DNA from: a virus
Taxonomy: Duplodnaviria > Heunggongvirae > Uroviricota > Caudoviricetes
IMG/VR virus record: IMGVR_UViG_2617270976_000014
Span: 1-10,963 of that record
Length of the DNA stretch: 10,963 bases
Direction: 5' to 3' (one strand)
The notes beneath the pieces were generated by a model. The model worked only from the letters and a program-made list of their open reading frames with translations. It had not been told where the DNA came from and searched no databases. The translations under genes were made by a program, and so were the position numbers. Each line of letters opens with the position of its first letter. The stretch's first letter is position 1. This document shows positions 1-10,963 of this stretch, piece after piece.

Positions 1-1734
1 ATGAAAGAAAAAAAATTCGTTAGTGAGCTTTTCCTTGAAAATGGGCAGTTTATTTTAGTCGGTTTGACAGGTCGAACTGGTTCTGGTTGCACAACAACAG
101 CTAATATTCTTGAAAACGAAAAAACAGTCTTCCCTGATGTAAGTAAATTACAGGGGTTTTACAAGGGATTGGATGTCCATCGTTATAATATAGTTAAAAA
201 ATTCGCAGAAAATCACTGGGAAAATTTTTACTCAATTAAGGTGAGTGACCTAATCTCAGCGTATCTTCTGATGTTAACAGTTGAGGAAGCTTCTGAATTC
301 ATTCTATCATCTAATAAATTTATCAGTAAAGAGCATTTAGATATTGTATTAACTTTTGGTGTATTCTCAGATAATCTCATTTTGACAAGATTTAAAAATG
401 TAATTGAGAATTTGCTTGATCATAATAGTGAATTGAAGTTTGATAAAAAAACGATTAATAAATTTATATCAATTTTGAAGTTAGTTAGAAAATTTACTAA
501 AGAATTCAAAGCTGAACTAAATGAGATAAACTCAAATTTATATGTTTCAGCCTATCAGTTAGCAGGTAAGTCAATTAGACGTCGTGGGCGTATTGAAGTC
601 GATTTTGAAGATAAAGAGTTTATGCCTAAATCTGTTTTTCATTTGCCGGAAACTATTAATAGGGTTATTAAATTAATAAGAAAAAGCAAAAGAGATAACG
701 CATTAATTGTCATAGATGCTATTAGAAATCCATATGAGGCAAAATTTTTTAAGGATAGATATTCTGCATTTCATTTAATGTCAATAAATGCCCCAGATGA
801 ACATCGAACAAACTATTTGCGGAAACTACATAAGTTTTCAGAAAAGCAGATAGAGGAAATAGATTCTGTAGAGTCAGGTAAAGGTGATAACTCTTACAAA
901 CATCTCACCAATCCAAATGTAACTAAATGTATTGAACTATCAGATATACACATTTTTAACCCAAAAAATGAATTTGATAATGACAATATTTTAAAAGCAC
1001 AATTAGCGTGGTACATCGCACTGATGAAGCATCCTGGTCTGATAACACCTACTGCAATGGAAAGGGTTATGCAAGTTGCGTATACGGTAAAATTAAACTC
1101 TGGCTGTATATCTAGACAGGTGGGAGCTGTAGTAACTGATGGTGATAATTCAATAAAATCAGTTGGTTGGAATGATGTTGCCAACGGTCAGATTCCTTGC
1201 TCTATGAGATCTCTAGATGGCCTAATGAACGATTTTGATGAAAAAACGTACAGTCATTATGAGAGAAATAATAGTTCTTTCAGAATTAAAGCTAATGAGA
1301 AACTCTTAAATTTTAGGGCGATAGATAAAACTGGTGATATTTATAGAGGCAGGAACTTATCTTATTGTTTTAAAGATATACATAATGATCTTGATAAAGA
1401 GAAAAAAGGTAATCAAGTTCATACACGTGCATTACATGCTGAGGAAAACGCATTTTTACAACTTGCAAAATATGGTGGTATTGGCGTTCTGGGGGGGAAG
1501 TTGTATACAACTGCCAGTCCCTGTGAGTTGTGTGCGAAAAAAGCTTATCAGTTAGGTATATCTGAAATTGTATTTATTGATCCCTACCCAGGTATAGCTC
1601 AAGACCATATTATTAATATAGGTAGTAAGCCACCAAAGTTAATACAATTTAGAGGCGCAATTGGGAAGTCATATCACCGACTTTATGAGCAAATTATCCC
1701 GATAAAAGATGAGTTAGAATATCTCCTTGAGTAG
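1..1734 (+). CDS. P-loop kinase-like / cytidine (dCMP) deaminase fusion protein, AvcD/DcdV-type dCTP-deaminase antiphage protein-like (577 aa)
   Basis: Uninterrupted 577-codon ORF starting ATG at 1, stop TAG 1732-1734. N-terminal glycine-rich loop GLTGRTGSGCTT (Walker-A-like, Cys where the Lys is expected). C-terminal zinc-deaminase signature HAEENA...PCELC (HxE plus PCxxC). About 30% GC, unlike the adjacent prophage. Upstream region lies outside the window. Confidence 0.7.
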   Translation: MKEKKFVSELFLENGQFILVGLTGRTGSGCTTTANILENEKTVFPDVSKLQGFYKGLDVHRYNIVKKFAENHWENFYSIKVSDLISAYLLMLTVEEASEFILSSNKFISKEHLDIVLTFGVFSDNLILTRFKNVIENLLDHNSELKFDKKTINKFISILKLVRKFTKEFKAELNEINSNLYVSAYQLAGKSIRRRGRIEVDFEDKEFMPKSVFHLPETINRVIKLIRKSKRDNALIVIDAIRNPYEAKFFKDRYSAFHLMSINAPDEHRTNYLRKLHKFSEKQIEEIDSVESGKGDNSYKHLTNPNVTKCIELSDIHIFNPKNEFDNDNILKAQLAWYIALMKHPGLITPTAMERVMQVAYTVKLNSGCISRQVGAVVTDGDNSIKSVGWNDVANGQIPCSMRSLDGLMNDFDEKTYSHYERNNSSFRIKANEKLLNFRAIDKTGDIYRGRNLSYCFKDIHNDLDKEKKGNQVHTRALHAEENAFLQLAKYGGIGVLGGKLYTTASPCELCAKKAYQLGISEIVFIDPYPGIAQDHIINIGSKPPKLIQFRGAIGKSYHRLYEQIIPIKDELEYLLE

Positions 1735-2114: not shown

Positions 2115-3131
2115 CTATCTTAAGTTGCATAAAGGGTTTTTAGTTACCGCATCTTCAAGGTGATCGGGCGAAAAGTGGGCGTAAATCATCGTCATTTTTA
2201 TATCGGCATGGCCCAGAATATCGCGCAGCACCAGTATGTTTCCGCCATTCATCATAAAATGGCTGGCGAATGTATGACGTAGCACGTGAGTGCATTGGCC
2301 CTCTGGCAGCTCGATGCCAGCTCGCTTTACTGCTCGTTCAAAGGCTTTTCTGCACGGGGTGAATAGCTTCCCTCTGTTCTTGGGGAGTTCGTCATACAGA
2401 TCTTGAGATATCGGCACGGTGCGGTTTTTCTTACCCTTCGTCTTGGTATAAGTGATGCGGTATTTAGATAACTGATGGCCCTGCAGGTTTTCAGCTTCAC
2501 TCCAGCGTGCGCCGGTGGCCAGGCATATTTTTGCAATCAAAAGCAGACTGGGGTTTTGAGAATCAGCGCAGGCATCTAGCAGACGTTTAATTTCTTCCGA
2601 GGTCAGGAACGCCAGTTCCCCCTCAGCGATTTTAAATGTTGGCAGCCCGGCGAGAGGATTTGGTGCTGACCAGTGGCCTAGTTTTTTCAATGTGCCGAAA
2701 ACCGATGATAGGTTACGTTGCTCAAGATTCACCGTGCGTGGTTTTACTGGCGACATTAGTGTGCCGTCTTCGTTACGAACGTCACCTTTTAACCGTGCTT
2801 CGCGGTATTTCGTAAAGTCACCGGCTGTCAGTTCTGAGGCGATGGGGTCGCCTAGACCATTACAGATAATTCTAAGTTTCGCCATGAGGCGCTTGGGGTC
2901 TGCGAGTGTCTGACCATACAGGGAATACCAAAGCTCAATTAATTCTGATAGGCGTCGCCGATCATCCTTTTCACCCAACCACGGTTTTTTATTCACTTCT
3001 TCCATTGTGAAGCTTTCAAAAGCAATGGCTTCGCCTTTCGTAGCAAATTGCTTACGCACGCGCTTACCATTGCGTCCATTGGGATAGCACTCACACAACC
3101 ATTTTCCGTTCGGCTGTTTTCTGATGGTCAT
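2115..3131 (-). CDS. int: Tyrosine recombinase, P2/186-family phage integrase (338 aa)
   Basis: N-terminus MTIRKQPNGKW...YPNGRNGKRVRKQF is P2-family-like. C-terminal catalytic residues in context: ATGARWSE (Arg), HVLRHTFAS (His-x-x-Arg), MIYAHF (Tyr). Its start lies 1 nt after the stop of the upstream repressor gene (TGA-T-ATG on the minus strand). Confidence 0.9.
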   Translation of the reverse strand: MTIRKQPNGKWLCECYPNGRNGKRVRKQFATKGEAIAFESFTMEEVNKKPWLGEKDDRRRLSELIELWYSLYGQTLADPKRLMAKLRIICNGLGDPIASELTAGDFTKYREARLKGDVRNEDGTLMSPVKPRTVNLEQRNLSSVFGTLKKLGHWSAPNPLAGLPTFKIAEGELAFLTSEEIKRLLDACADSQNPSLLLIAKICLATGARWSEAENLQGHQLSKYRITYTKTKGKKNRTVPISQDLYDELPKNRGKLFTPCRKAFERAVKRAGIELPEGQCTHVLRHTFASHFMMNGGNILVLRDILGHADIKMTMIYAHFSPDHLEDAVTKNPLCNLR

Positions 3132-3132
3132 A

Positions 3133-3765
3133 TCAAAGGCTCTTAATGATTTTCAGTGCGCGGCCTACTACCTCAATGTCATCTAGGCCACACTCAAACG
3201 ATGAATCATCCTGATGCACTACTAATTTGTTTCCCGGAAGTCGAGTCAATTTAACAATGCTTTTTATCCCGTCAATATCGACTAACCACATACCATTTAC
3301 TGGTGGTGTTTGGTTGCGATCTATTAAATAAGAATCACCAGAAGTAGTCACCAGCAGTAGGTTGCTTGAGTCTGAGGGGAGTATGCTGCTATCAATGATT
3401 GCTTTTCCAGCATCGACCAATAAACCACCGTTGAGAGTCGCCTTGTCAATTTCAGGAGATACTAGTTCAGAAAGAGGTACAACCTTGCTGGAGTTCACGG
3501 AATTGATATTTTTTTTAGGTTCAATGTTTGGACCTGGCTCCCCCTGTCCGGTGGTTAGCCACAGTAAAGAAACTCCTGTTTCCAAGGCGCACTGAATCAC
3601 CCACTCTGCAGGAAAACTATCTCTTAAGTATCTGTTTGCCATGGTGCTTTTTGATGCGCCTAAGTGATCGCAAAGTTGCTGTCTGGACTTGAAATCATAG
3701 GCTGCCATTAGTCTATGGATAGCCTCTCTTCCCCCTGTATTCTCTCCAACCTTTACCTGTATCAT
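3133..3765 (-). CDS. cI: CI-type immunity repressor, phage 186-like (210 aa)
   Basis: Sits directly upstream of int on the same strand and divergent from the early operon. HTH-like segment SRQQLCDHLGASKSTMANRYL near the N-terminus. Size and position match 186 CI. Confidence 0.7.
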   Translation of the reverse strand: MIQVKVGENTGGREAIHRLMAAYDFKSRQQLCDHLGASKSTMANRYLRDSFPAEWVIQCALETGVSLLWLTTGQGEPGPNIEPKKNINSVNSSKVVPLSELVSPEIDKATLNGGLLVDAGKAIIDSSILPSDSSNLLLVTTSGDSYLIDRNQTPPVNGMWLVDIDGIKSIVKLTRLPGNKLVVHQDDSSFECGLDDIEVVGRALKIIKSL

Positions 3766-3777
3766 TTTTTAATCCTG

Positions 3778-3835
3778 TTGACGTATCAAATATTGGATCG
3801 TAGTATCTCGATGCATCAAATATTGAATCAAGTAA
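3778..3835 (+). promoter_or_regulatory. Lytic/lysogenic switch region: candidate early promoter (-35 TTGACG 3778-3783, 17-bp spacer, -10 TAGTAT 3801-3806) flanked by two copies of an ATCAAATATTGRATC operator-like repeat (3785-3799 and 3814-3828)
   Basis: Hexamers and spacing read from sequence; the near-identical 15-mer occurs twice, 29 bp apart, between divergent cI and the Apl-like gene. Confidence 0.45.
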
Positions 3836-3884
3836 AACGAGATAAAACGACGTAAACCAAACCTTAATCGGGAGATACTGCACT

Positions 3885-4127
3885 ATGAGCACTGATATTT
3901 CAATTCGTGTACCAAAAGAGATGGCTACGCCTGCAGAGTTCGCGGAATGGGAAGGTATCTCCCGCGGCTCTGTGTATCAAAAAATTCATCATGGTCAGCT
4001 TGCTAAATACATGGTCAAGAAAGAAAAAAACAAAGGCCGCGTAAGCCTGCGTTATTTAATGTACAAAACCGATCAGGTCCGTGAATCCCTCGGTCATTCC
4101 AACTTCCGCGTCATTGTTGGTAAGTAA
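3885..4127 (+). CDS. Apl/Cox-like small DNA-binding protein (excisionase / switch regulator), 80 aa
   Basis: First gene of the rightward operon, immediately after the switch region; RBS GGGAGA upstream of the ATG; size and position match 186 Apl / P2 Cox. Confidence 0.55.
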   Translation: MSTDISIRVPKEMATPAEFAEWEGISRGSVYQKIHHGQLAKYMVKKEKNKGRVSLRYLMYKTDQVRESLGHSNFRVIVGK

Positions 4128-4159: not shown

Positions 4160-4669
4160 ATGTTTGATTATAAGATTTCCAAACACCCGCATTTTGATGA
4201 AGCCTGTAGAGCTTTTGCACTTCGTCACAATATGGCGAAGCTGGCAGAACGTTCAGGAATGAATGTCCAGACTCTGCGAAACAAACTCAACCCAGATCAA
4301 CCGCATCAGCTCAATGCGCCAGATATCTGGCTACTTACCGATCTGACGGAAGATTCAACGCTGGTAGACGGTTTTCTGGCACAGATTCACTGCCTGCCAT
4401 GTGTACCGATTAATGAGGTGGCAAAAGAGAAACTGCCACATTACGTCATGAGTGCAACCGCAGAGATCGGGCGTGTTGCTGCAGGTGCGGTATCTGGCGA
4501 TGTAAAAACCAGTGCAGGTCGTCGTGATGCTATCAGCAGCATTAACTCTGTTACACGACTGATGGCGTTAGCTGCTGTTTCATTGCAGGCCCGTTTACAG
4601 GTTAATCCTGCGATGGCAAGTGCAGTTGATACTGTAACCGGCCTCGGTGCTTCATTCGGTTTGCTGTGA
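4160..4669 (+). CDS. cII: CII-like transcriptional activator (169 aa), phage 186 CII-like
   Basis: RBS AGGGGG 6 nt upstream of ATG; 169 aa, the length I recall for 186 CII; HTH-like segment MAKLAERSGMNVQTLRNKL; second gene of the early operon. Confidence 0.6.
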   Translation: MFDYKISKHPHFDEACRAFALRHNMAKLAERSGMNVQTLRNKLNPDQPHQLNAPDIWLLTDLTEDSTLVDGFLAQIHCLPCVPINEVAKEKLPHYVMSATAEIGRVAAGAVSGDVKTSAGRRDAISSINSVTRLMALAAVSLQARLQVNPAMASAVDTVTGLGASFGLL

Positions 4670-4676
4670 GGTGCTT

Positions 4677-4877
4677 ATGCTGACGAAAGAACCATCATTT
4701 GCATCGCTGCTGGTAAAACAAAGTCCGGCAATGCACTACGGTCACGGCTGGATCATGGGTGAGGATGGTAAACGCTGGCATCCGTGCCGTTCACAAGATG
4801 AATTGCTGGCAGAACTATCTACGAAAAAACGGGGGAACAAATGGCTATTGAAGGCGCTGCGGCGACTGTTCCATTAA
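4677..4877 (+). CDS. Small early protein of unknown function (66 aa), at the position of 186 fil
   Basis: ATG at 4677 preceded by GAGGTG RBS that overlaps the cII stop; the ORF-track start at 4647 is likely an upstream extension. Confidence 0.4.
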   Translation: MLTKEPSFASLLVKQSPAMHYGHGWIMGEDGKRWHPCRSQDELLAELSTKKRGNKWLLKALRRLFH

Positions 4878-5182
4878 GCCCCGGTGAACGCCTGAATGGA
4901 CTTAATCACATAGCGGAATTAAGGGCGAAAGTTTTTGGCCTGAATATTGAGTCAGAGCTTGAGCGGTTTATTAAAGACATGCGTGATCCACGGGATATCA
5001 ATAACGAACAAAATAAACGAGCACTGGCAGCCATATTCTTTATGGCAAAAATTCCGGCTGAACGTCATAGCATCAGCATCAATGAGCTGACCACTGACGA
5101 AAAGCGGGAGTTGATTAAAGCAATGAATCATTTTCGTGCAGTGGTGAGCTTATTTCCCAGACGGCTAACCATGCCGAATTAA
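4841..5182 (+). CDS. Hypothetical phage early protein (113 aa)
   Basis: ATG preceded by GGGGGAA RBS; same strand as the operon; overlaps the 3' end of the preceding ORF by 37 nt in another frame. Confidence 0.45.
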   Translation: MAIEGAAATVPLSPGERLNGLNHIAELRAKVFGLNIESELERFIKDMRDPRDINNEQNKRALAAIFFMAKIPAERHSISINELTTDEKRELIKAMNHFRAVVSLFPRRLTMPN

Positions 5183-5249
5183 CCAACTAATGAAATTAAT
5201 GGCGTAAACCCGCCGAGCATCCCTTTATCTAAATTCAGGAGAATTGATT

Positions 5250-5483
5250 ATGCGTAATATTGAAATCCTCACGACTAAAACCGGACCGGATGATGCAGGG
5301 CTTAATATTTTACTGACAGAGGCTCGTCTGGAAGAACGCCGGGCAAGGGCTGAAGCAATGGCAGCTCGCCTTGATAGCCTGGCGTGTCATATCTCATCCC
5401 GTCAGCTAAACCACGTGGAAGCGGCAGAACTGCTGCGTGTGACTGCTGAAGCAATCCAGAACGAAGCGCAGGAGATCCACTAA
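5250..5483 (+). CDS. Hypothetical phage early protein (77 aa)
   Basis: ATG at 5250 preceded by AGGAG; its stop overlaps the next start (TAATG). Confidence 0.45.
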   Translation: MRNIEILTTKTGPDDAGLNILLTEARLEERRARAEAMAARLDSLACHISSRQLNHVEAAELLRVTAEAIQNEAQEIH

Positions 5484-5710
5484 TGGCTGATGCAATGGAT
5501 CTCGTACAGCAGCGCGTTGAAGAAGAACGCCAGCGCCATATCCGTGCTGCCCGTGCCAAAACACCGGGCGTGTCTCGCGTGCTTTGCATTGAGTGTGAAG
5601 CGCCAATTCCGCCAGCACGCCGCCGTGCCATTCCGGGTGTGCAGCTTTGCATTACCTGCCAGGAAATTGCAGAGCTGAAAGGCAAACATTACAACGTAGG
5701 TGCTGTATGA
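5483..5710 (+). CDS. TraR/DksA-family C4 zinc-finger protein (75 aa)
   Basis: Two CxxC pairs with the spacing of the TraR/DksA finger (CIEC...CITC); RBS AGGAGA; start overlaps the preceding stop. Confidence 0.75.
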   Translation: MADAMDLVQQRVEEERQRHIRAARAKTPGVSRVLCIECEAPIPPARRRAIPGVQLCITCQEIAELKGKHYNVGAV

Positions 5711-6564
5711 GCACCATCCTGAAATGGGCGGGAAATAAAACCGCCATTATGTCCGAACTGAAAAAACACCTTCCTGCTGGCCCGCGACTGGTTGAACCTT
5801 TCGCGGGTTCCTGTGCTGTGATGATGGAGACGGATTACCCCAGCTATCTTGTTGCGGATATTAATCCTGATTTAATCAACCTCTATAAAAAGGTTGCTGC
5901 TGATTGTGAGGCATTTATATCTCGTGCCAGAGCTTTATTTGAGGAAGCAAACAGGGAGGTGGCTTATTACAACATAAGGCAGGAGTTTAATTACTCCACT
6001 GAAATTACTGATTTCATGAAAGCGGTATATTTTCTGTATCTCAATCGTCATGGTTACCGTGGGTTATGTCGCTATAACAAGAGCGGGTATTTCAACATTC
6101 CCTACGGTAATTATAAAAATCCGTATTTCCCTGAAAAAGAAATTCGCGCATTTGCAGAGAAAGCCCAGCGGGCAACGTTTATCTGCGCCAGCTTTGATGA
6201 AACGCTGGCGATGTTGAAGGCGGGGGATGTGGTGTATTGCGATCCGCCGTATGACGGCACGTTTTCCGGTTATCACACTGACGGCTTCACTGAAGATGAC
6301 CAGTATCACCTGGCATCCGTTCTTGAACATCGGTCATCAGAAGGACATCCGGTCATTGTTTCTAACAGTGACACATCCCTGATCCGTTCGCTGTATCGCA
6401 ATTTTACTCACCACTACATCAAGGCAAAACGCAGCATCGGCGTAGCAGCTGGTGAGAGTAAATCTGCAACAGAAATCATCGCTGTTTCTGGGGCGCGCTG
6501 CTGGGTGGGATTTGATCCTTCGCGTGGCGTGGATAGTTCTGCCGTGTACGGAGTGCGTGCATGA
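5707..6564 (+). CDS. dam: DNA N6-adenine methyltransferase, Dam family (285 aa)
   Basis: N-terminal ILKWAGNK, AdoMet-binding EPFAGSCAV and catalytic DPPY (VYCDPPYDG) motifs; start ATG overlaps the upstream stop (ATGA) and its stop overlaps the start of gene A. Confidence 0.85.
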
Positions 6565-8975
6565 GCCATGCTGATATGAACAACTGCAGCGGCTTTAACG
6601 AGGCCGCCGCAGCATTCTCATGGGACAGCCCGAAAAAGGCTATTAACCCTTATCTGGATCCGGCAGAAGTTGCGCCGGTTTCTGCGCTTTCAAACCTGAT
6701 CACTCTGTACGCTGCCGATAACGAGCAGGAACAACTGCGCCGCGAGGCACTCAGTGATCAGGTCTGGGAGCGTTATTTCTTTAATGAATCCCGTGATCCT
6801 GTCCAGCGCGAAATGGAGCAGGATAAGCTCATTAGCCGGGCAAAGCTGGCGCATGAGCAGCAGCGTTTTAATCCGGATATGGTCATTCTGGCGGACGTCA
6901 ACGCCCAGCCTTCCCATATCAGCAAGCCGCTGATGCAACGTATTGAATACTTCAGCAGCCTGGGCAGGCCAAAGGCTTATTCCCGCTATTTGCGTGAGAC
7001 GATTAAGCCATGTCTGGAACGACTGGAGCATGTACGCGAGAGTCAGCTATCCACTTCTTTTCGCTTTATGGCAAGCCATGAAGGGCTGGACGGCCTGCTG
7101 ATCCTGCCTGAAATGAGTCAGGATCATGTGAAACGCCTGTCCACCCTGGTAGCTGCGCATATGAGCATGTGCCTTGATGCAGCTTGTGGCGATTTGTATG
7201 CCACCGATGACGTTAAGCCAGAAGAAATCCGCAAGACATGGGAAAAGGTGGCGGCGGAAACCCTGCGTCTGGATGTCATCCCACCTGCGTTTGAGCAACT
7301 CCGTCGGAAAAGAAACCGCCGTAAACCCGTGCCCTATGAACTCATTCCGGGTTCGCTGGCGCGTATGTTGTGCGGCGACTGGTGGTATCGGAAATTATGG
7401 AAGATGCGTTGCGAATGGCGGGAAGAGCAGTTGCGCGCTGTTTGCCTGGTCAGCAAAAAAGCATCTCCTTATGTCAGCTATGAAGCCGTGATGCATAAAC
7501 GTGAGCAGCGCCGTAAGTCGCTGGAGTTTTTCCGTTCTCATGAACTGGTGAACGAAGACGGCGACACGCTGGACATGGAGGATGTGGTAAACGCCAGCAG
7601 CAGCAACCCTGTGCATCGCCGCAATGAGATGATGGCCTGTGTTAAAGGTCTGGAGCTTATCGCGGAAATGCGCGGTGACTGCGCCGTTTTCTACACTATC
7701 ACCTGTCCGTCGCGTTTCCATTCCACGCTAAATAACGGCAGACCAAACCCGACCTGGACAAACGCGACGGTAAGACAAAGCAGCGATTATCTGGTCGGCA
7801 TGTTTGCTGCATTTCGTAAGGCGATGCACAAAGCCGGGTTGCGCTGGTATGGCGTGCGGGTGGCTGAGCCGCATCATGACGGCACAGTTCACTGGCACCT
7901 GTTGTGTTTCATGCGCAAAAAAGACCGCCGTGCCATCACTGCATTACTGCGTAAGTTTGCCACCCGTGAAGACCGCGAGGAGCTGGGCAATAACACTGGG
8001 CCGCGCTTTAAGTCTGAGTTGATTAACCCGCGCAAAGGAACGCCGACAAGCTACATCGCGAAATATATCAGTAAGAACATTGACGGTCGTGGTCTGGCTG
8101 GCGAGATCAGCAAGGAAACGGGTAAATCTCTGCGTGATAACGCTGAATACGTGAATGCCTGGGCGTCTCTGCATCGTGTTCAGCAATTCCGCTTCTTTGG
8201 TATTCCGGGGCGTCAGGCTTACCGTGAACTTCGCTTGCTGGCTGGTCAGGCGGCAAGGCAACAGGGTGACAAAAAAGTAGGTGCGCCGGTACTGGATAAC
8301 CCGCGTCTTGATGCCATTCTGGCTGCTGCTGATGCTGGTTGTTTTGCCACCTACATCATGAAGCAGGGCGGCGTACTGGTTCCCCGTAAATATCACCTCA
8401 TCAGAACCGCTTATGAAATCAACGAAGAGCCGACCGCCTATGGCGATCACGGCATTCGTATTTATGGCATCTGGTCACCCATTGCAGAGGGCAAGATCTG
8501 CACTCATGCAGTGAAGTGGAAAATGGTTCGTAAAGCCGTTGACGTTCAGGAGGCGGCAGCCGACCAGGGCGCTTGCGCCCCTTGGACTCGTGGCAATAAC
8601 TGTCCCCTTGCTGAAAATTTGAACCAACAAGGGAAAGACAAATCAGCTGATGGGGATACCAGGACGGACATTACCCGCATGGATGACAAGGAGTTGCACG
8701 ATTACCTGCACAGTATGAGCAAAAAAGAGCGCCGGGAACTGGCTGCAAGGTTACGCCTGGTGAAACCGAAACGGCGTAAAGACTACAAACAGCGAATTAC
8801 AGACCATCAGCGACAGCAGCTCGTCTATGAACTGAAGTCCAGAGGATTTAATGGCAGCGAGAAAGAGGTCGATTTACTCCTTCGCGGCGGCAGTATTCCG
8901 TCAGGAGCAGGCCTGCGTATCTTCTATCGGAACCAGCGTTTGCAGGAAGATGATAAGTGGCGAAACCTGTATTAA
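6561..8975 (+). CDS. A: Rolling-circle replication initiator endonuclease, P2/186 gpA family (804 aa)
   Basis: HUH motif (TVHWHLLCF) and paired catalytic tyrosines ([11 protein letters not shown]); size and position after the early genes match P2 A. Confidence 0.85.
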
Positions 8976-9128: not shown

Positions 9129-9317
9129 ATGCAGGACTATTTTTTGGAGTCTTTGAAGCTCCAGCGCATTGATTTTTTTCTTAAGCTTGTAGCGGCTAGT
9201 GAGTGTAGTGATGAAGAGAAGGGGCTGGCTTTGCAGTGGGTTTCTGAACTGACAGATGAACTCATGGCAAAAATCAGAACCCACGAATACAACCGCTCAA
9301 TGGATGTCATCAGCTGA
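9129..9317 (+). CDS. Small SOS-controlled protein (62 aa), possible Tum-like antirepressor
   Basis: Strong RBS AGGAGG before the ATG at 9129; LexA box just upstream; the position after A and next to a DinI-like gene mirrors 186 tum. No sequence match to Tum could be verified by eye. Confidence 0.4.
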   Translation: MQDYFLESLKLQRIDFFLKLVAASECSDEEKGLALQWVSELTDELMAKIRTHEYNRSMDVIS

Positions 9318-9327
9318 GGTGACCTTT

Positions 9328-9561
9328 ATGCGCATTGAAATAATGATCGATAAAGAGCAGAAGATTAGCCAGTCTACCCTGGACGCCCTTGAATCCGAGC
9401 TTTACCGCAATCTGCGCCCCCTGTATCCCAAAACGGTAATTCGCATCCGCAAAGGTAGCTCTAACGGTGTGGAACTGACCGGACTGCAACTGGACGAAGA
9501 AAGAAAACAAGTGATGAAGATTATGCAGAAGGTGTGGGAAGACGACAGCTGGCTGCATTAA
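9328..9561 (+). CDS. dinI: DinI-family protein (77 aa)
   Basis: MRIEIMIDKEQ...DALESEL...IMQKVWEDDSWL aligns by eye with E. coli DinI (MRIEV...DALAGEL...ILQETWESADDW); RBS GAGGTGA upstream. Confidence 0.75.
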   Translation: MRIEIMIDKEQKISQSTLDALESELYRNLRPLYPKTVIRIRKGSSNGVELTGLQLDEERKQVMKIMQKVWEDDSWLH

Positions 9562-9720: not shown

Positions 9721-10146
9721 CTACTTAATTGAGTCCAGTAACAAGTTACAGTTACTCTCATTGTAGAGAGAACGAGCAATTAGTGTTACCTGCTTTCCAT
9801 TCATTCCCGGCTTATCCCATAACACAGCTTCTTGCGACGCCACAAATTCAGCATAATCAATTATGCGTTGTTCGTGATCTGGTTCCTCATAGCCAAAGTA
9901 TGAGAGCGCATCGTTGTAAGCGTGGTAAGCTGCTTTCTGTAATATCTTGATATCGGCTGTAGGTACTTGCTCCGTGTAGCTAGGATCTAATTGTGTGCTA
10001 CTGCCATAGAATGCACATGAAAGGTAAGATATTGATTTCTGTTGAGCTTTAGTTCCTTTCTCATAGTTTTTAGCTGTTACCGCCTGAACAGGGACGCTAA
10101 CAAAGCTTGCAACCAGAATTAAAATTAATACGTAAAAGCTTTTCAT
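9721..10146 (-). CDS. Secreted or periplasmic protein of unknown function (141 aa), likely prophage cargo gene
   Basis: N-terminal signal peptide (MKSFYVLILILVASFVSVPVQA, AxA-type cleavage site, no lipobox Cys); GAGG RBS 7 nt upstream; two Cys in the mature part; about 40% GC; opposite strand to the phage operon, between dinI and the cos-like motif. Confidence 0.6.
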   Translation of the reverse strand: MKSFYVLILILVASFVSVPVQAVTAKNYEKGTKAQQKSISYLSCAFYGSSTQLDPSYTEQVPTADIKILQKAAYHAYNDALSYFGYEEPDHEQRIIDYAEFVASQEAVLWDKPGMNGKQVTLIARSLYNESNCNLLLDSIK

Positions 10147-10507: not shown

Positions 10508-10632
10508 CGCGCGCTCATGGTTGAATTAATGAAATTATGGTGTTAAATAGGCTAGCTTTTTAAGTCGTGAATATTCAATTTTTCAACTCATTTTTTTCAT
10601 AGGGAGGAGTAATTGACATGGTTATGTTAGTG

Positions 10633-10963
10633 GGTGATGCTGCCAACTTACTGATTTAGTGTATGATGGTGTTTTTGAGGTGCTCCAGTGGCTTCTGTTT
10701 CTATCAGCTGTCCCTCCTGTTCAGCTACTGACGGGGTGGTGCGTAACGGCAAAAGCACCGCCGGACATCAGCGCTATCTCTGCTCTCACTGCCGTAAAAC
10801 ATGGCAACTGCAGTTCACTTACACCGCTTCTCAACCCGGTACGCACCAGAAAATCATTGATATGGCCATGAATGGCGTTGGATGCCGGGCAACAGCCCGC
10901 ATTATGGGCGTTGGCCTCAACACGATTTTACGTCACTTAAAAAACTCAGGCCGCAGTCGGTAA
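10633..10963 (+). mobile_element. IS1 insertion sequence, left end (IRL GGTGATGCTGCCAACTTACTGAT) continuing beyond the window
   Basis: Canonical IS1 left inverted repeat at 10633-10655 followed by insA; the window ends at the insA stop, so insB and the IRR are not visible. Confidence 0.9.
10688..10963 (+). CDS. insA: IS1 transposition regulator InsA (91 aa)
   Basis: GTG start; translation [40 protein letters not shown]... matches IS1 InsA as I recall it. Confidence 0.95.

Follow-up and report, generated by a model that had tools for sequence, protein, structure and literature searches.

The window, that is, the whole stretch of 10,963 nucleotides analysed here, encodes int, CI, homologs of Apl, CII and Fil, gpA and DinI, and it shares approximately 96–97% nucleotide identity with Felsduovirus phages, in line with the phage origin that a first-pass annotation of the sequence had proposed. 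The prophage is Felsduovirus/186-like (P2/186-like), and its early lytic operon contains dam, directly between a TraR-like zinc-finger gene and gpA (Table 1). The earlier description of the downstream gene as the replication initiator holds as well, and relatives of gpA carry the annotation replication endonuclease. At the far end of the window, positions 1–1734 encode an AvcD-type dCTP deaminase, a defence cargo. Rfam and tRNA scans returned no matches.

Table 1. Coordinates of dam, its neighbours and the associated sequence features in the window.
Feature	Position (nt)	Codons or residues	Strand	Basis or remark
Candidate pR early lytic promoter, TTGACG-17-TAGTAT	3778..3806		+	Promoter scan; position relative to cI/apl matches 186 pR
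TraR/DksA-type C4 zinc-finger gene, 75 aa	5483..5710		+	PF01258, TIGR02419, phrog_54
Shine-Dalgarno-like AGGTG	5698..5702		+	4 nt before dam ATG, inside upstream ORF
Predicted 6-bp hairpin GGUGCU/AGCACC	5699..5715		+	RNA fold; dam AUG in loop, Shine-Dalgarno in stem
dam, Dam-family (D12/alpha-class) N6-adenine DNA methyltransferase, 285 aa	5707..6564		+	CDS, stop codon included
KWAGNK N-terminal motif	5722..5739	6–11	+	Sequence; EcoDam alignment
F-A-G-S, AdoMet-binding motif I (FxG core)	5800..5811	32–35	+	Aligned to EcoDam F-V-G-A
DNA-recognition hairpin region	6055..6114	117–136	+	EcoDam alignment; residue roles from PMC4417163
D-P-P-Y catalytic motif IV	6241..6252	179–182	+	Sequence; invariant across all aligned homologs
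C-terminal tail	6487..6561	261–285	+	Outside Dam core; present across aligned prophage homologs
Predicted 8-bp hairpin	6543..6563		+	gpA AUG (6561–6563) in 3' stem, most of Shine-Dalgarno GGAG in loop
gpA, P2/186-type rolling-circle replication initiator (nicking endonuclease)	6561..8975		+	PF05840, E = 2.9e-126
12-bp GC-rich hairpin, then AUUCUCAU	6584..6612		+	24–52 nt into gpA; candidate counterpart of phage 186 tM1 terminator

A program-made list of open reading frames places the start of the dam frame at TTG 5647. The start backed by homologs is ATG 5707: family profiles align from residue 1 of this frame, and the N-termini of the aligned homologs read M(S/T/A)(T/S)(I/M)LKWAGNK. In motif I, the FxGxG signature, F32-A-G34 pairs with F-V-G of E. 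coli Dam (EcoDam) and the last glycine is replaced by Cys36, leaving the FxG core alone; Cys36 and the surrounding EPFAGSCAV are invariant within the phage clade. The catalytic D179-P-P-Y182 aligns to the EcoDam DPPY and follows the target-recognition region, which is the alpha order, and the two proteins are colinear over residues 4–260. A GATC site is present at 6241–6244, inside the DPPY codons GAT CCG themselves.

The assignment to the Dam family, made earlier from the KWAGNK, FAGS and DPPY motifs, is confirmed by profile, sequence and structure comparisons. The protein matches PF02086 over the entire profile (1–253 of 253; E = 5e-77; 259.5 bits against a cut-off of 22) and TIGR00571 'dam' over positions 1–266 of 267 (323.1 bits against a cut-off of 114.85). 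It matches the sequences of the E. coli Dam crystal structures at E = 1.5e-73, with 46% identity to E. coli Dam. In a Foldseek search of the PDB with an AF2 model (mean pLDDT 67, with 70–90 in the core), the top 14 matches are all EcoDam (E = 1e-22 to 4e-21, TM 0.75–0.78 on target), followed by DpnM and T4 Dam. Additionally, the host-Dam equivalog NF008152 is not reached, at 289.3 bits against a cut-off of 441. Taken together, these matches identify the protein as a full-length Dam-family (alpha-class, D12) N6-adenine DNA methyltransferase and place it, on sequence grounds, in a separate prophage-associated clade that is no ortholog of the chromosomal dam. Both the family profiles and the matched EcoDam span (EcoDam residues 7–267) stop at approximately residue 260. 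In the tail beyond this point, conservation within the prophage clade reaches at least 90% at W266, D270, D276 and V283; the AF2 confidence is low there, with pLDDT dropping from 66 to 26.

The overlapping stop/start codons reported on both sides of dam are read directly in the sequence. The dam start overlaps the TGA of the upstream ORF in the ATGA at 5707–5710, and the gpA start overlaps the dam TGA in the ATGA at 6561–6564. Both overlaps are kept in all 79 related IMG/VR loci and in phage RE-2010, and the annotations of four out of five divergent lineages (Fels-2, SEN8, Gegavirus and Quadragintavirus), whose Dam proteins are 50–75% identical, likewise show stop/start overlaps. Because genes in this operon generally abut closely or overlap (cII/fil, fil/DUF5347, DUF2732/traR, traR/dam and dam/gpA), the ATGA overlaps represent the usual packing of phage genes rather than a peculiarity of dam. 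The Shine-Dalgarno of dam is weaker in the window, GTAGGT versus GGAGGT in all 79 IMG/VR relatives checked. The gpA Shine-Dalgarno, GGAG at 6550–6553, is located inside dam, 7 nt upstream of the gpA start.

Phage 186 offers a parallel for this arrangement. Its GenBank record notes that 'translation to end of orf84 appears necessary for translation of A protein', and its orf84–A junction is a 4-nt overlap, as is the dam/gpA junction in the window; the slot before A in phage 186 holds orf82–84 (exonuclease-like, DUF5405 and PAPS-reductase-like) and no dam. From the layout of the junction we infer that translation of gpA is coupled to that of dam, and by analogy this coupling would have a direct precedent in phage 186, in the same slot.

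Predicted RNA folds surround both junctions. The folds at the dam start and at the gpA junction are unremarkable, with z-scores of −1.64 and −1.45, respectively, and both hairpins are short. In the hairpin that holds the gpA AUG, all eight base pairs can still form in every one of 21 distinct relatives, via one-sided changes alone. Further downstream, the GC-rich hairpin in early gpA is the most stable 40-nt fold within the 2.4-kb gene. The phage 186 record annotates tM1 within A, at its 5' end. The 5' end of the window gpA and the 186 A/tM1 region are not alignable at the nucleotide level, and local folds were ranked by energy in place of an alignment. In this ranking, tM1 as annotated holds first place within the 186 A gene, and the equivalents in Fels-2, SEN8 and a Gegavirus rank within the top 2–3 of theirs. 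Compared with 186 tM1, the window hairpin is nearer to the start codon (+24 versus about +85); its U-tract is poor, weaker than that of tM1, and the terminator scan makes no call at the hairpin.

As to transcription, dam is presumably transcribed from the pR-like promoter, since the promoter scan finds no other plus-strand promoter-like site between this promoter and dam. The terminator scan detects no canonical terminator around dam. A weak 5-bp terminator-like site at 5568–5580 is no more than shuffled sequences predict, and an antisense promoter-like match at 6137–6110 is within chance expectation. Under CI repression, dam would be silent, and it would be expressed at induction or infection alongside gpA. 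M.EcoMIV, a Dam homolog of prophage Phi2 in EC958 (ST131) that is reportedly untranscribed in lysogens, was considered as a relative, and no tie to this Dam family was established; two 50-kb stretches of EC958 contain the end of an apparent Mu-like prophage and none of the P2-like kind.

Three readings other than that of an orphan GATC methylase were weighed, and the first concerns the target. In EcoDam, residues K9, Y119, L122, R124, P134 and Y138 contact GATC; K9 touches the first GATC base pair and Y119 is the intercalating residue (PMC4417163). In the alignment, all six are identical in the window protein, as K6, Y117, L120, R122, P132 and Y136. At five of these positions, K6, L120, R122, P132 and Y136, the prophage clade, ESSI2_ev015 and EcoDam show no variation; the sixth, Y117, is constant within the prophage clade, and ESSI2_ev015 has F in its place. 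Because these contact residues are conserved, GATC specificity is strongly predicted. A Dam-family enzyme with a target other than plain GATC (relaxed or extended), which would act as a broader anti-restriction methylase, would fit several observations: Pfam D12 membership by itself leaves the target undefined, the host-Dam equivalog cut-off is missed, reviews describe phage and plasmid orphan methylases as semi-specific in some cases, and two DNA-binding residues of EcoDam are changed, N120 to R118 (an arginine shared by the whole prophage clade) and R137 to N135. Against such a target, in addition to the identical base contacts and intercalating tyrosine, stand the 46% identity to EcoDam, which is high for a change of specificity, and the closest solved relatives, EcoDam, DpnM and T4 Dam, all of which are GATC methylases. 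DpnM, too, methylates GATC. Moreover, a protein that bears the retron-Ec67 Dam methylase name is 96% identical to the window Dam, an identity to the protein so named and not to the sequence published in 1990. We therefore regard a different target as very unlikely; the R118 and N135 substitutions may alter the flanking preference or the fidelity of the enzyme. GATC is neither avoided nor enriched across the window, with 40 sites observed and 37.8 expected.

A further reading holds that dam persists chiefly as a leader whose translation serves gpA, its methylase activity being incidental or dispensable. The 186 slot, filled with the unrelated and non-essential orf82–84, of which orf84 apparently has to be translated through to its end for A to be translated, would suit this reading, as would the differing content of the slot between lineages and the report of P2 as lacking any methylase. 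On the other hand, dam is under purifying selection, with a dN/dS of 0.10–0.15 in comparison with RE-2010, Fels-2, SEN8 and a Gegavirus, and the catalytic and DNA-contact residues are invariant in homologs down to approximately 48–52% identity; selection therefore acts on the enzyme itself, beyond the maintenance of an open frame. Additionally, dam adjoins A in every dam-carrying lineage examined. A leader role and an enzyme role are not mutually exclusive, yet the leader as the main reason for keeping dam has, in our judgement, little chance of being right. That the methylase is instead the modification half of a prophage restriction-modification or other defence system can hardly be correct. 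PADLOC models of type II methyltransferases do match (291 bits), the prophage carries defence cargo in the form of the dCTP deaminase, and RE-2010 carries an AIPR protein; however, the best PADLOC model is the orphan methyltransferase (oMTase, 370 bits), and the neighbours are a TraR-like non-nuclease and the replication nickase gpA, with no restriction gene near dam within the window. The gene order of TraR-like (or another gene), dam and gpA is kept in several Peduoviridae genera, and no endonuclease gene lies beside dam in five Peduoviridae lineages with the same synteny. Judged by its neighbours, the enzyme is, as first proposed, an orphan methyltransferase.

Overall, we consider it highly likely that the locus encodes a functional orphan GATC methylase that is expressed in the early lytic operon, is coupled to gpA and supplements the host Dam. 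The gene fills a variable cargo slot directly 5' of A, which elsewhere is occupied by orf82–84 (186) or by an exonuclease-like gene together with dam. In this model, ribosomes finishing the upstream ORF would stop on the next start within ATGA and reinitiate, giving rise to a coupled chain that runs from DUF2732 via the TraR-like protein and Dam to gpA. Those translating the 3' end of dam would melt the small hairpin holding the gpA AUG, and those entering gpA would cover the tM1-like hairpin 24–52 nt downstream, as in the phage 186 annotation. The enzyme would transfer a methyl group from AdoMet to the N6 of adenine in GATC. Its likely role would be to top up host Dam during burst rolling-circle replication, such that progeny DNA becomes fully GATC-methylated before packaging; full methylation would guard against GATC restriction that methylation blocks and would spare under-methylated DNA the handling by MutH and SeqA.

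Of the two roles put forward in the first-pass annotation, protection of phage DNA from restriction is a reasonable reading, and for the other, the timing of replication and packaging by Dam, no evidence was found for P2-like phages. These phages package from cos sites and are not known to depend on Dam. The hosts, E. coli, Salmonella and Klebsiella, are already Dam-positive, and a second GATC methylase brings no obvious benefit. A more far-reaching idea, which we put forward as speculation and think probably wrong, is that the slot 5' of A might be a translation-gated cargo slot across P2/186-like phages, in which any gene present would hand its terminating ribosomes on to the A start, where they would mask a conserved terminator hairpin in early A, and that the tail of Dam could dock gpA or the replisome. 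If such gating operates, initiator synthesis would be tied to cargo expression and the amount of methylase would be linked to that of the initiator; if the tail serves as a docking peptide, new DNA would be methylated as it is made.

The gene occurs in 1239 of 5426 complete E. coli genomes (approximately 23%), and both gene and layout recur in RE-2010 and Fels-2, which are phages of Salmonella, as well as in many phages of Klebsiella. A prophage dam gene upstream of gpA is thus ordinary and already described, and the value of the locus as a discovery is small, given the credit in a 1990 title (below), the annotation in Fels-2 and RE-2010 and the frequency in E. coli. Its interest lies elsewhere. 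The prophage Dam would give many clinical Enterobacteriaceae an inducible GATC methylase in addition to their own and could confound dam-mutant phenotypes and methylomes; the locus bears on what advantage a phage of Dam-positive hosts draws from a redundant GATC methylase; and the dam–gpA junction is a handy natural case for studying how P2-like phages couple translation and attenuate their early genes.

The closest known systems include Fels-2 STM2730, RE-2010 gp10 and the Dam proteins of Klebsiella and Escherichia Peduoviridae, which are 74% (Fels-2) to 98% (RE-2010) identical to the window Dam, have the same C-terminal tail and are encoded directly 5' of gpA, usually after a TraR-like gene and with stop and start codons that overlap. 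They differ in detail: the upstream neighbour can be an exonuclease-like orf82 homolog (SEN8), DUF3850 (some E. coli prophages) or an annotated RNA-binding protein (ESSI2_ev015), and the annotated overlap in Fels-2 and SEN8 is 10 nt, compared with 4 nt in the window. The 90% cluster of the window Dam has 4038 members, including the NCBI protein named 'retron EC67 DNA adenine methylase', which has the same length of 285 aa, and the Fels-2 record also links its own Dam homolog to the retron EC67 name. The title of the 1990 paper (Hsu, Inouye & Inouye, PNAS 87:9454) credits the retron-Ec67 element with Dam methylase function, and the element is cited as located in a 186-related prophage (Dodd & Egan 1996). 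The window differs from it in carrying no retron, and nothing substantive is known to differ in Dam.

Comparison with the E. coli chromosomal Dam (PDB 2G1P, 4RTJ and others) reveals the same fold, motif order and DPPY. The window Dam is set apart by the arginine and asparagine at EcoDam positions N120 and R137, and by the cysteine in place of the second motif I glycine, and its final ~25 residues lie beyond the Dam profile match; furthermore, the EcoDam gene belongs to the host dam operon, whereas the window dam belongs to a repressor-controlled phage operon. T4/T2 Dam and the dmt product of a P1-like phage are more distant, with approximately 22% and 36% identity, respectively, and a different genome context. 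According to a review, pac cutting in P1 requires GATC methylation, and the role of T4 Dam in vivo is unclear. T4/T2 Dam and P1 Dmt are phage-encoded GATC methylases without a partner endonuclease, and the window Dam, with its strongly predicted specificity, would be an enzyme of the same kind.

The gene at window positions 5707-6564, referred to here as dam, is an intact open reading frame of 285 codons plus stop, and both the sequence and the modelled fold of its product place it in the Dam family, as the first-pass annotation had proposed. The protein is matched end to end by PF02086 (D12-class N6-adenine DNA methyltransferase, E = 5e-77) and scores 323 bits against the NCBIfam 'dam' subfamily model TIGR00571, for which the cut-off is 115. 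Its best sequence matches among solved structures are those of E. coli Dam (2G1P, 4RTJ and others, E = 1.5e-73), followed by DpnM (1.7e-33) and then T4 Dam (1.8e-17), and the two proteins share 46% identity by BLASTP (with E. coli Dam, across residues 4-260). An AlphaFold2 model built with 25 homologs as input is only moderately confident (mean pLDDT 67, core 70-90), with the N-terminus and the DNA-binding hairpin disordered; Foldseek searched with this model returns E. coli Dam structures as all of its top 14 matches (E = 1e-22 to 4e-21). The KWAGNK, FAGS and DPPY motifs that had been named are all present. A mechanical ORF list extends the frame upstream to TTG 5647; homologs begin at ATG 5707, with the N-terminus M(S/T/A)(T/S)(I/M)LKWAGNK, and residue 1 is also where the Pfam and TIGR alignments start. 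With 289 bits, the protein does not reach the 441-bit cut-off of the host-Dam equivalog model; it belongs to a clade distinct from chromosomal dam, rather than being a copy of the host gene. The dN/dS of 0.10-0.15 (against RE-2010, Fels-2, SEN8 and a Gegavirus) indicates purifying selection on the enzyme itself.

Beyond the Dam profile match, a C-terminal tail (residues 261-285, window 6487-6561) is kept across the prophage clade, with W266, D270, D276 and V283 at least 90% conserved. The tail changes faster than the core (pN 0.32 versus 0.15-0.17) and is modelled with low confidence, and its nucleotides double as the carrier of the gpA Shine-Dalgarno sequence and start hairpin. Additionally, in a small number of E. 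coli proteins in the databases (P0022, P0023 and P0092; 456-496 aa), 72-90% of the Dam sequence is fused to a PF05954 domain; these are probably prophage deletion products or assembly joins.

The target of the enzyme is very likely GATC, judging from conserved contact residues, characterised relatives and a 96%-identical protein named after Ec67. In E. coli Dam, recognition of the first base pair falls to K9 and Y138, Y119 is intercalated between the central A:T pairs, N120 forms a hydrogen bond to a base, R124 reads the guanine at base pair four, and L122 and P134 contact the base pair next to it (PMC4417163). By alignment, the counterparts are K6, Y136, Y117, R118, R122, L120 and P132, respectively, and the replacement of N120 by R118 is the only difference among the seven. 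K6, L120, R122, P132 and Y136 do not vary among the prophage clade, ESSI2_ev015 and E. coli Dam; Y117 is constant inside the prophage clade and F in ESSI2_ev015. GATC is the methylation target of all three relatives of known structure, E. coli Dam, DpnM and T4 Dam. The 90%-identity cluster of the protein has 4038 members, one of which, 96% identical to it, bears the NCBI name 'retron EC67 DNA adenine methylase'; the Fels-2 record likewise links its own Dam homolog to that name. The 1990 retron-Ec67 paper reportedly describes a 285-residue ORF 44% identical to E. coli Dam, in agreement with the values measured here. The Ec67 element has been credited in the literature with a Dam methylase function (1990) and described as a 186-related prophage (Dodd & Egan 1996). 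Within dam, the Asp-Pro codons of DPPY, GAT CCG, form a GATC site (6241-6244), so that the predicted target lies inside the gene's own active-site codons, which is probably a coincidence.

The window corresponds to the immunity and early part of a P2/186-like prophage (see table), syntenic with Salmonella phage RE-2010, which bears out the phage-borne origin that had been claimed; the downstream partner is indeed the replication initiator gpA.

Motifs of dam and annotated genes of the prophage early region
Feature	Position (nt)	Strand	Basis
Integrase	2115-3131	-	
CI repressor	3133-3765	-	
Apl-like ORF	3885-4127	+	
CII	4160-4669	+	
Fil	4647-4877	+	
DUF5347	4841-5182	+	
DUF2732	5244-5483	+	
TraR/DksA zinc finger	5483-5710	+	
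Dam	5707-6564	+	
KWAGNK motif	5722-5739	+	sequence
F-A-G-S motif	5800-5811	+	sequence
D-P-P-Y motif	6241-6252	+	sequence
gpA replication initiator	6561-8975	+	PF05840, E = 3e-126
DinI/Tum-like ORF	9256-9561	+	

Nucleotide identity of the dam region reaches 96-97% to RE-2010, whose gene order and 4-nt overlaps are identical, and to many Klebsiella prophages. Among complete E. coli genomes, 17 contain the window over at least 80% of its length, and 1239 of 5426 contain dam itself. The flanking genes include no nuclease gene, and the best PADLOC model for the protein is of the orphan-methyltransferase class, consistent with the orphan status assigned earlier. Elsewhere in the window, a 577-aa P-loop plus dCMP-deaminase protein (1-1734, + strand; PADLOC 'dCTPase' model, E = 2e-145) bears the annotation 'anti-phage dCTP deaminase' in genomes of E. 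coli, and its gene has a GC content of 32.8% against 45% for the window. Because this gene adjoins the integrase, where a different, hypothetical gene stands in RE-2010, it looks like prophage-borne defence cargo. Similarity to related prophages ends at about 10515-10637, and IS1 insA (10688-10963, + strand; InsA N- and C-terminal domains) is cut by the window end, which suggests that IS1 inserted into the variable region that follows gpA and DinI. The same region holds a 141-aa ORF (9721-10146, - strand; GC 40%) with a hydrophobic N-terminus, which matches phrog_7437 (function unknown) end to end (E = 4e-99) and has no match in Pfam or PADLOC.

In remoter Peduoviridae (Fels-2, SEN8, SopEPhi, Klebsiella Gegavirus, Quadragintavirus and Yersinia Firavirus), Dam is 50-75% identical. 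The gene lies directly 5' of gpA in all five such records inspected, with a stop-start overlap in all four that annotate dam. The gene upstream of dam varies, being TraR-like, an exonuclease-like orf82 homolog, a gene annotated as RNA-binding protein or, in some E. coli prophages, DUF3850. Phage 186 lacks dam and carries in this slot orf82-84, three non-essential ORFs that are likewise linked by 4-nt overlaps, and P2 is reported to lack a methylase. Dam is thus an accessory gene in a variable slot that ends, on its 3' side, where gene A starts. In Yersinia phage vB_YenM_42.18 (NC_070913), a 53%-identical Dam frame at 3201-3998 is unannotated, small hypothetical ORFs being called instead; the annotated gpA start (locus 3844) falls within this match and is therefore probably wrong.

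The ATGA stop/start overlaps on both sides of dam were read as described, the TGA of the upstream ORF overlapping the dam start at 5707-5710 and the dam TGA overlapping the start of the 804-codon downstream ORF at 6561-6564. Both are kept in 79/79 close relatives despite two different upstream genes. The gpA Shine-Dalgarno sequence, GGAG, lies inside dam, 7 nt before the gpA ATG, and a predicted 8-bp hairpin (6543-6563) holds the gpA AUG in its stem. All substitutions in 21 distinct relatives preserve its pairs, but the support that they lend is modest because all are one-sided. A predicted 6-bp hairpin (5699-5715) holds the dam Shine-Dalgarno sequence in its stem and the dam AUG in its loop; z-scores of the folds at both junctions are unremarkable. 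Window position 5697 is T, and G in 79/79 IMG/VR relatives checked, which changes the dam Shine-Dalgarno sequence from GGAGGT to GTAGGT and replaces Gly with Val at position 72 in the TraR-like protein; E. coli VG888-46E9 is 100% identical to the window across the dam coding sequence.

Further downstream, a 12-bp GC-rich hairpin (6584-6612, + strand), 24-52 nt into gpA, is the most stable 40-nt fold of the whole 2.4-kb gene; it has a poor U-tract and was not called by the terminator scan. In a folding-energy rank test, the annotated tM1 terminator ranks first in 186, and counterpart hairpins are among the two or three most stable folds in Fels-2, SEN8 and Gegavirus, although the sequences cannot be aligned. 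The outer stem of the window hairpin differs from that of Fels-2 by two pairing-preserving double changes (CUGC/GCAG versus CCAC/GUGG, by eye). According to the GenBank record of 186, 'translation to end of orf84 appears necessary for translation of A protein', and tM1, which lies within the first 110 nt of A, is entered there as the 'expected terminator for lytic transcripts in absence of translation of A gene'. The dam-gpA junction follows this orf84-A precedent, and by analogy we infer that translation of gpA is coupled to that of dam.

The sole + strand promoter-like site upstream of dam is pR-like (3778-3806) and lies beside the divergent cI, as in phage 186. No convincing terminator was found between this site and dam, the one weak + strand match (5568-5580) being within chance expectation. 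Given this arrangement, dam should be repressed in the lysogen and made together with gpA upon induction. Candidate CI operators are two copies of ATCAAATATTG(G/A)ATC, at 3785-3799 and 3815-3829, spaced by 30 bp in the intergenic region between cI and apl; the former falls in the -35/-10 spacer of the pR-like promoter and includes GATC 3796-3799, and the latter has GAATC in place of GATC.

Host Dam is scarce. The most economical reading is that phage Dam would supplement limiting host Dam during rapid rolling-circle replication; packaged genomes would then be fully methylated, shielded from GATC endonucleases that methylation blocks, and would escape treatment as under-methylated DNA by MutH or SeqA. 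The window holds about as many GATC sites as expected by chance (40 observed, 37.8 expected). Many phages encode Dam homologs, P1 packaging requires GATC methylation, and what T4 Dam does in vivo is still unclear (2025 review). We found no support for a packaging or replication-timing role of Dam in P2-like phages.

Taken together, dam belongs to a prophage Dam family that is already known and named and is very common; the gene itself holds nothing new, and its first-pass description is supported. Points of mild interest are the conserved C-terminal tail, the generality of a translated slot plus early-A hairpin, and the fitness benefit of the enzyme. The entries nearest to it are Dam from the retron-Ec67/186-related prophage, Fels-2 STM2730 and RE-2010 gp10, and it would work like E. 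coli Dam, yet is not its ortholog.
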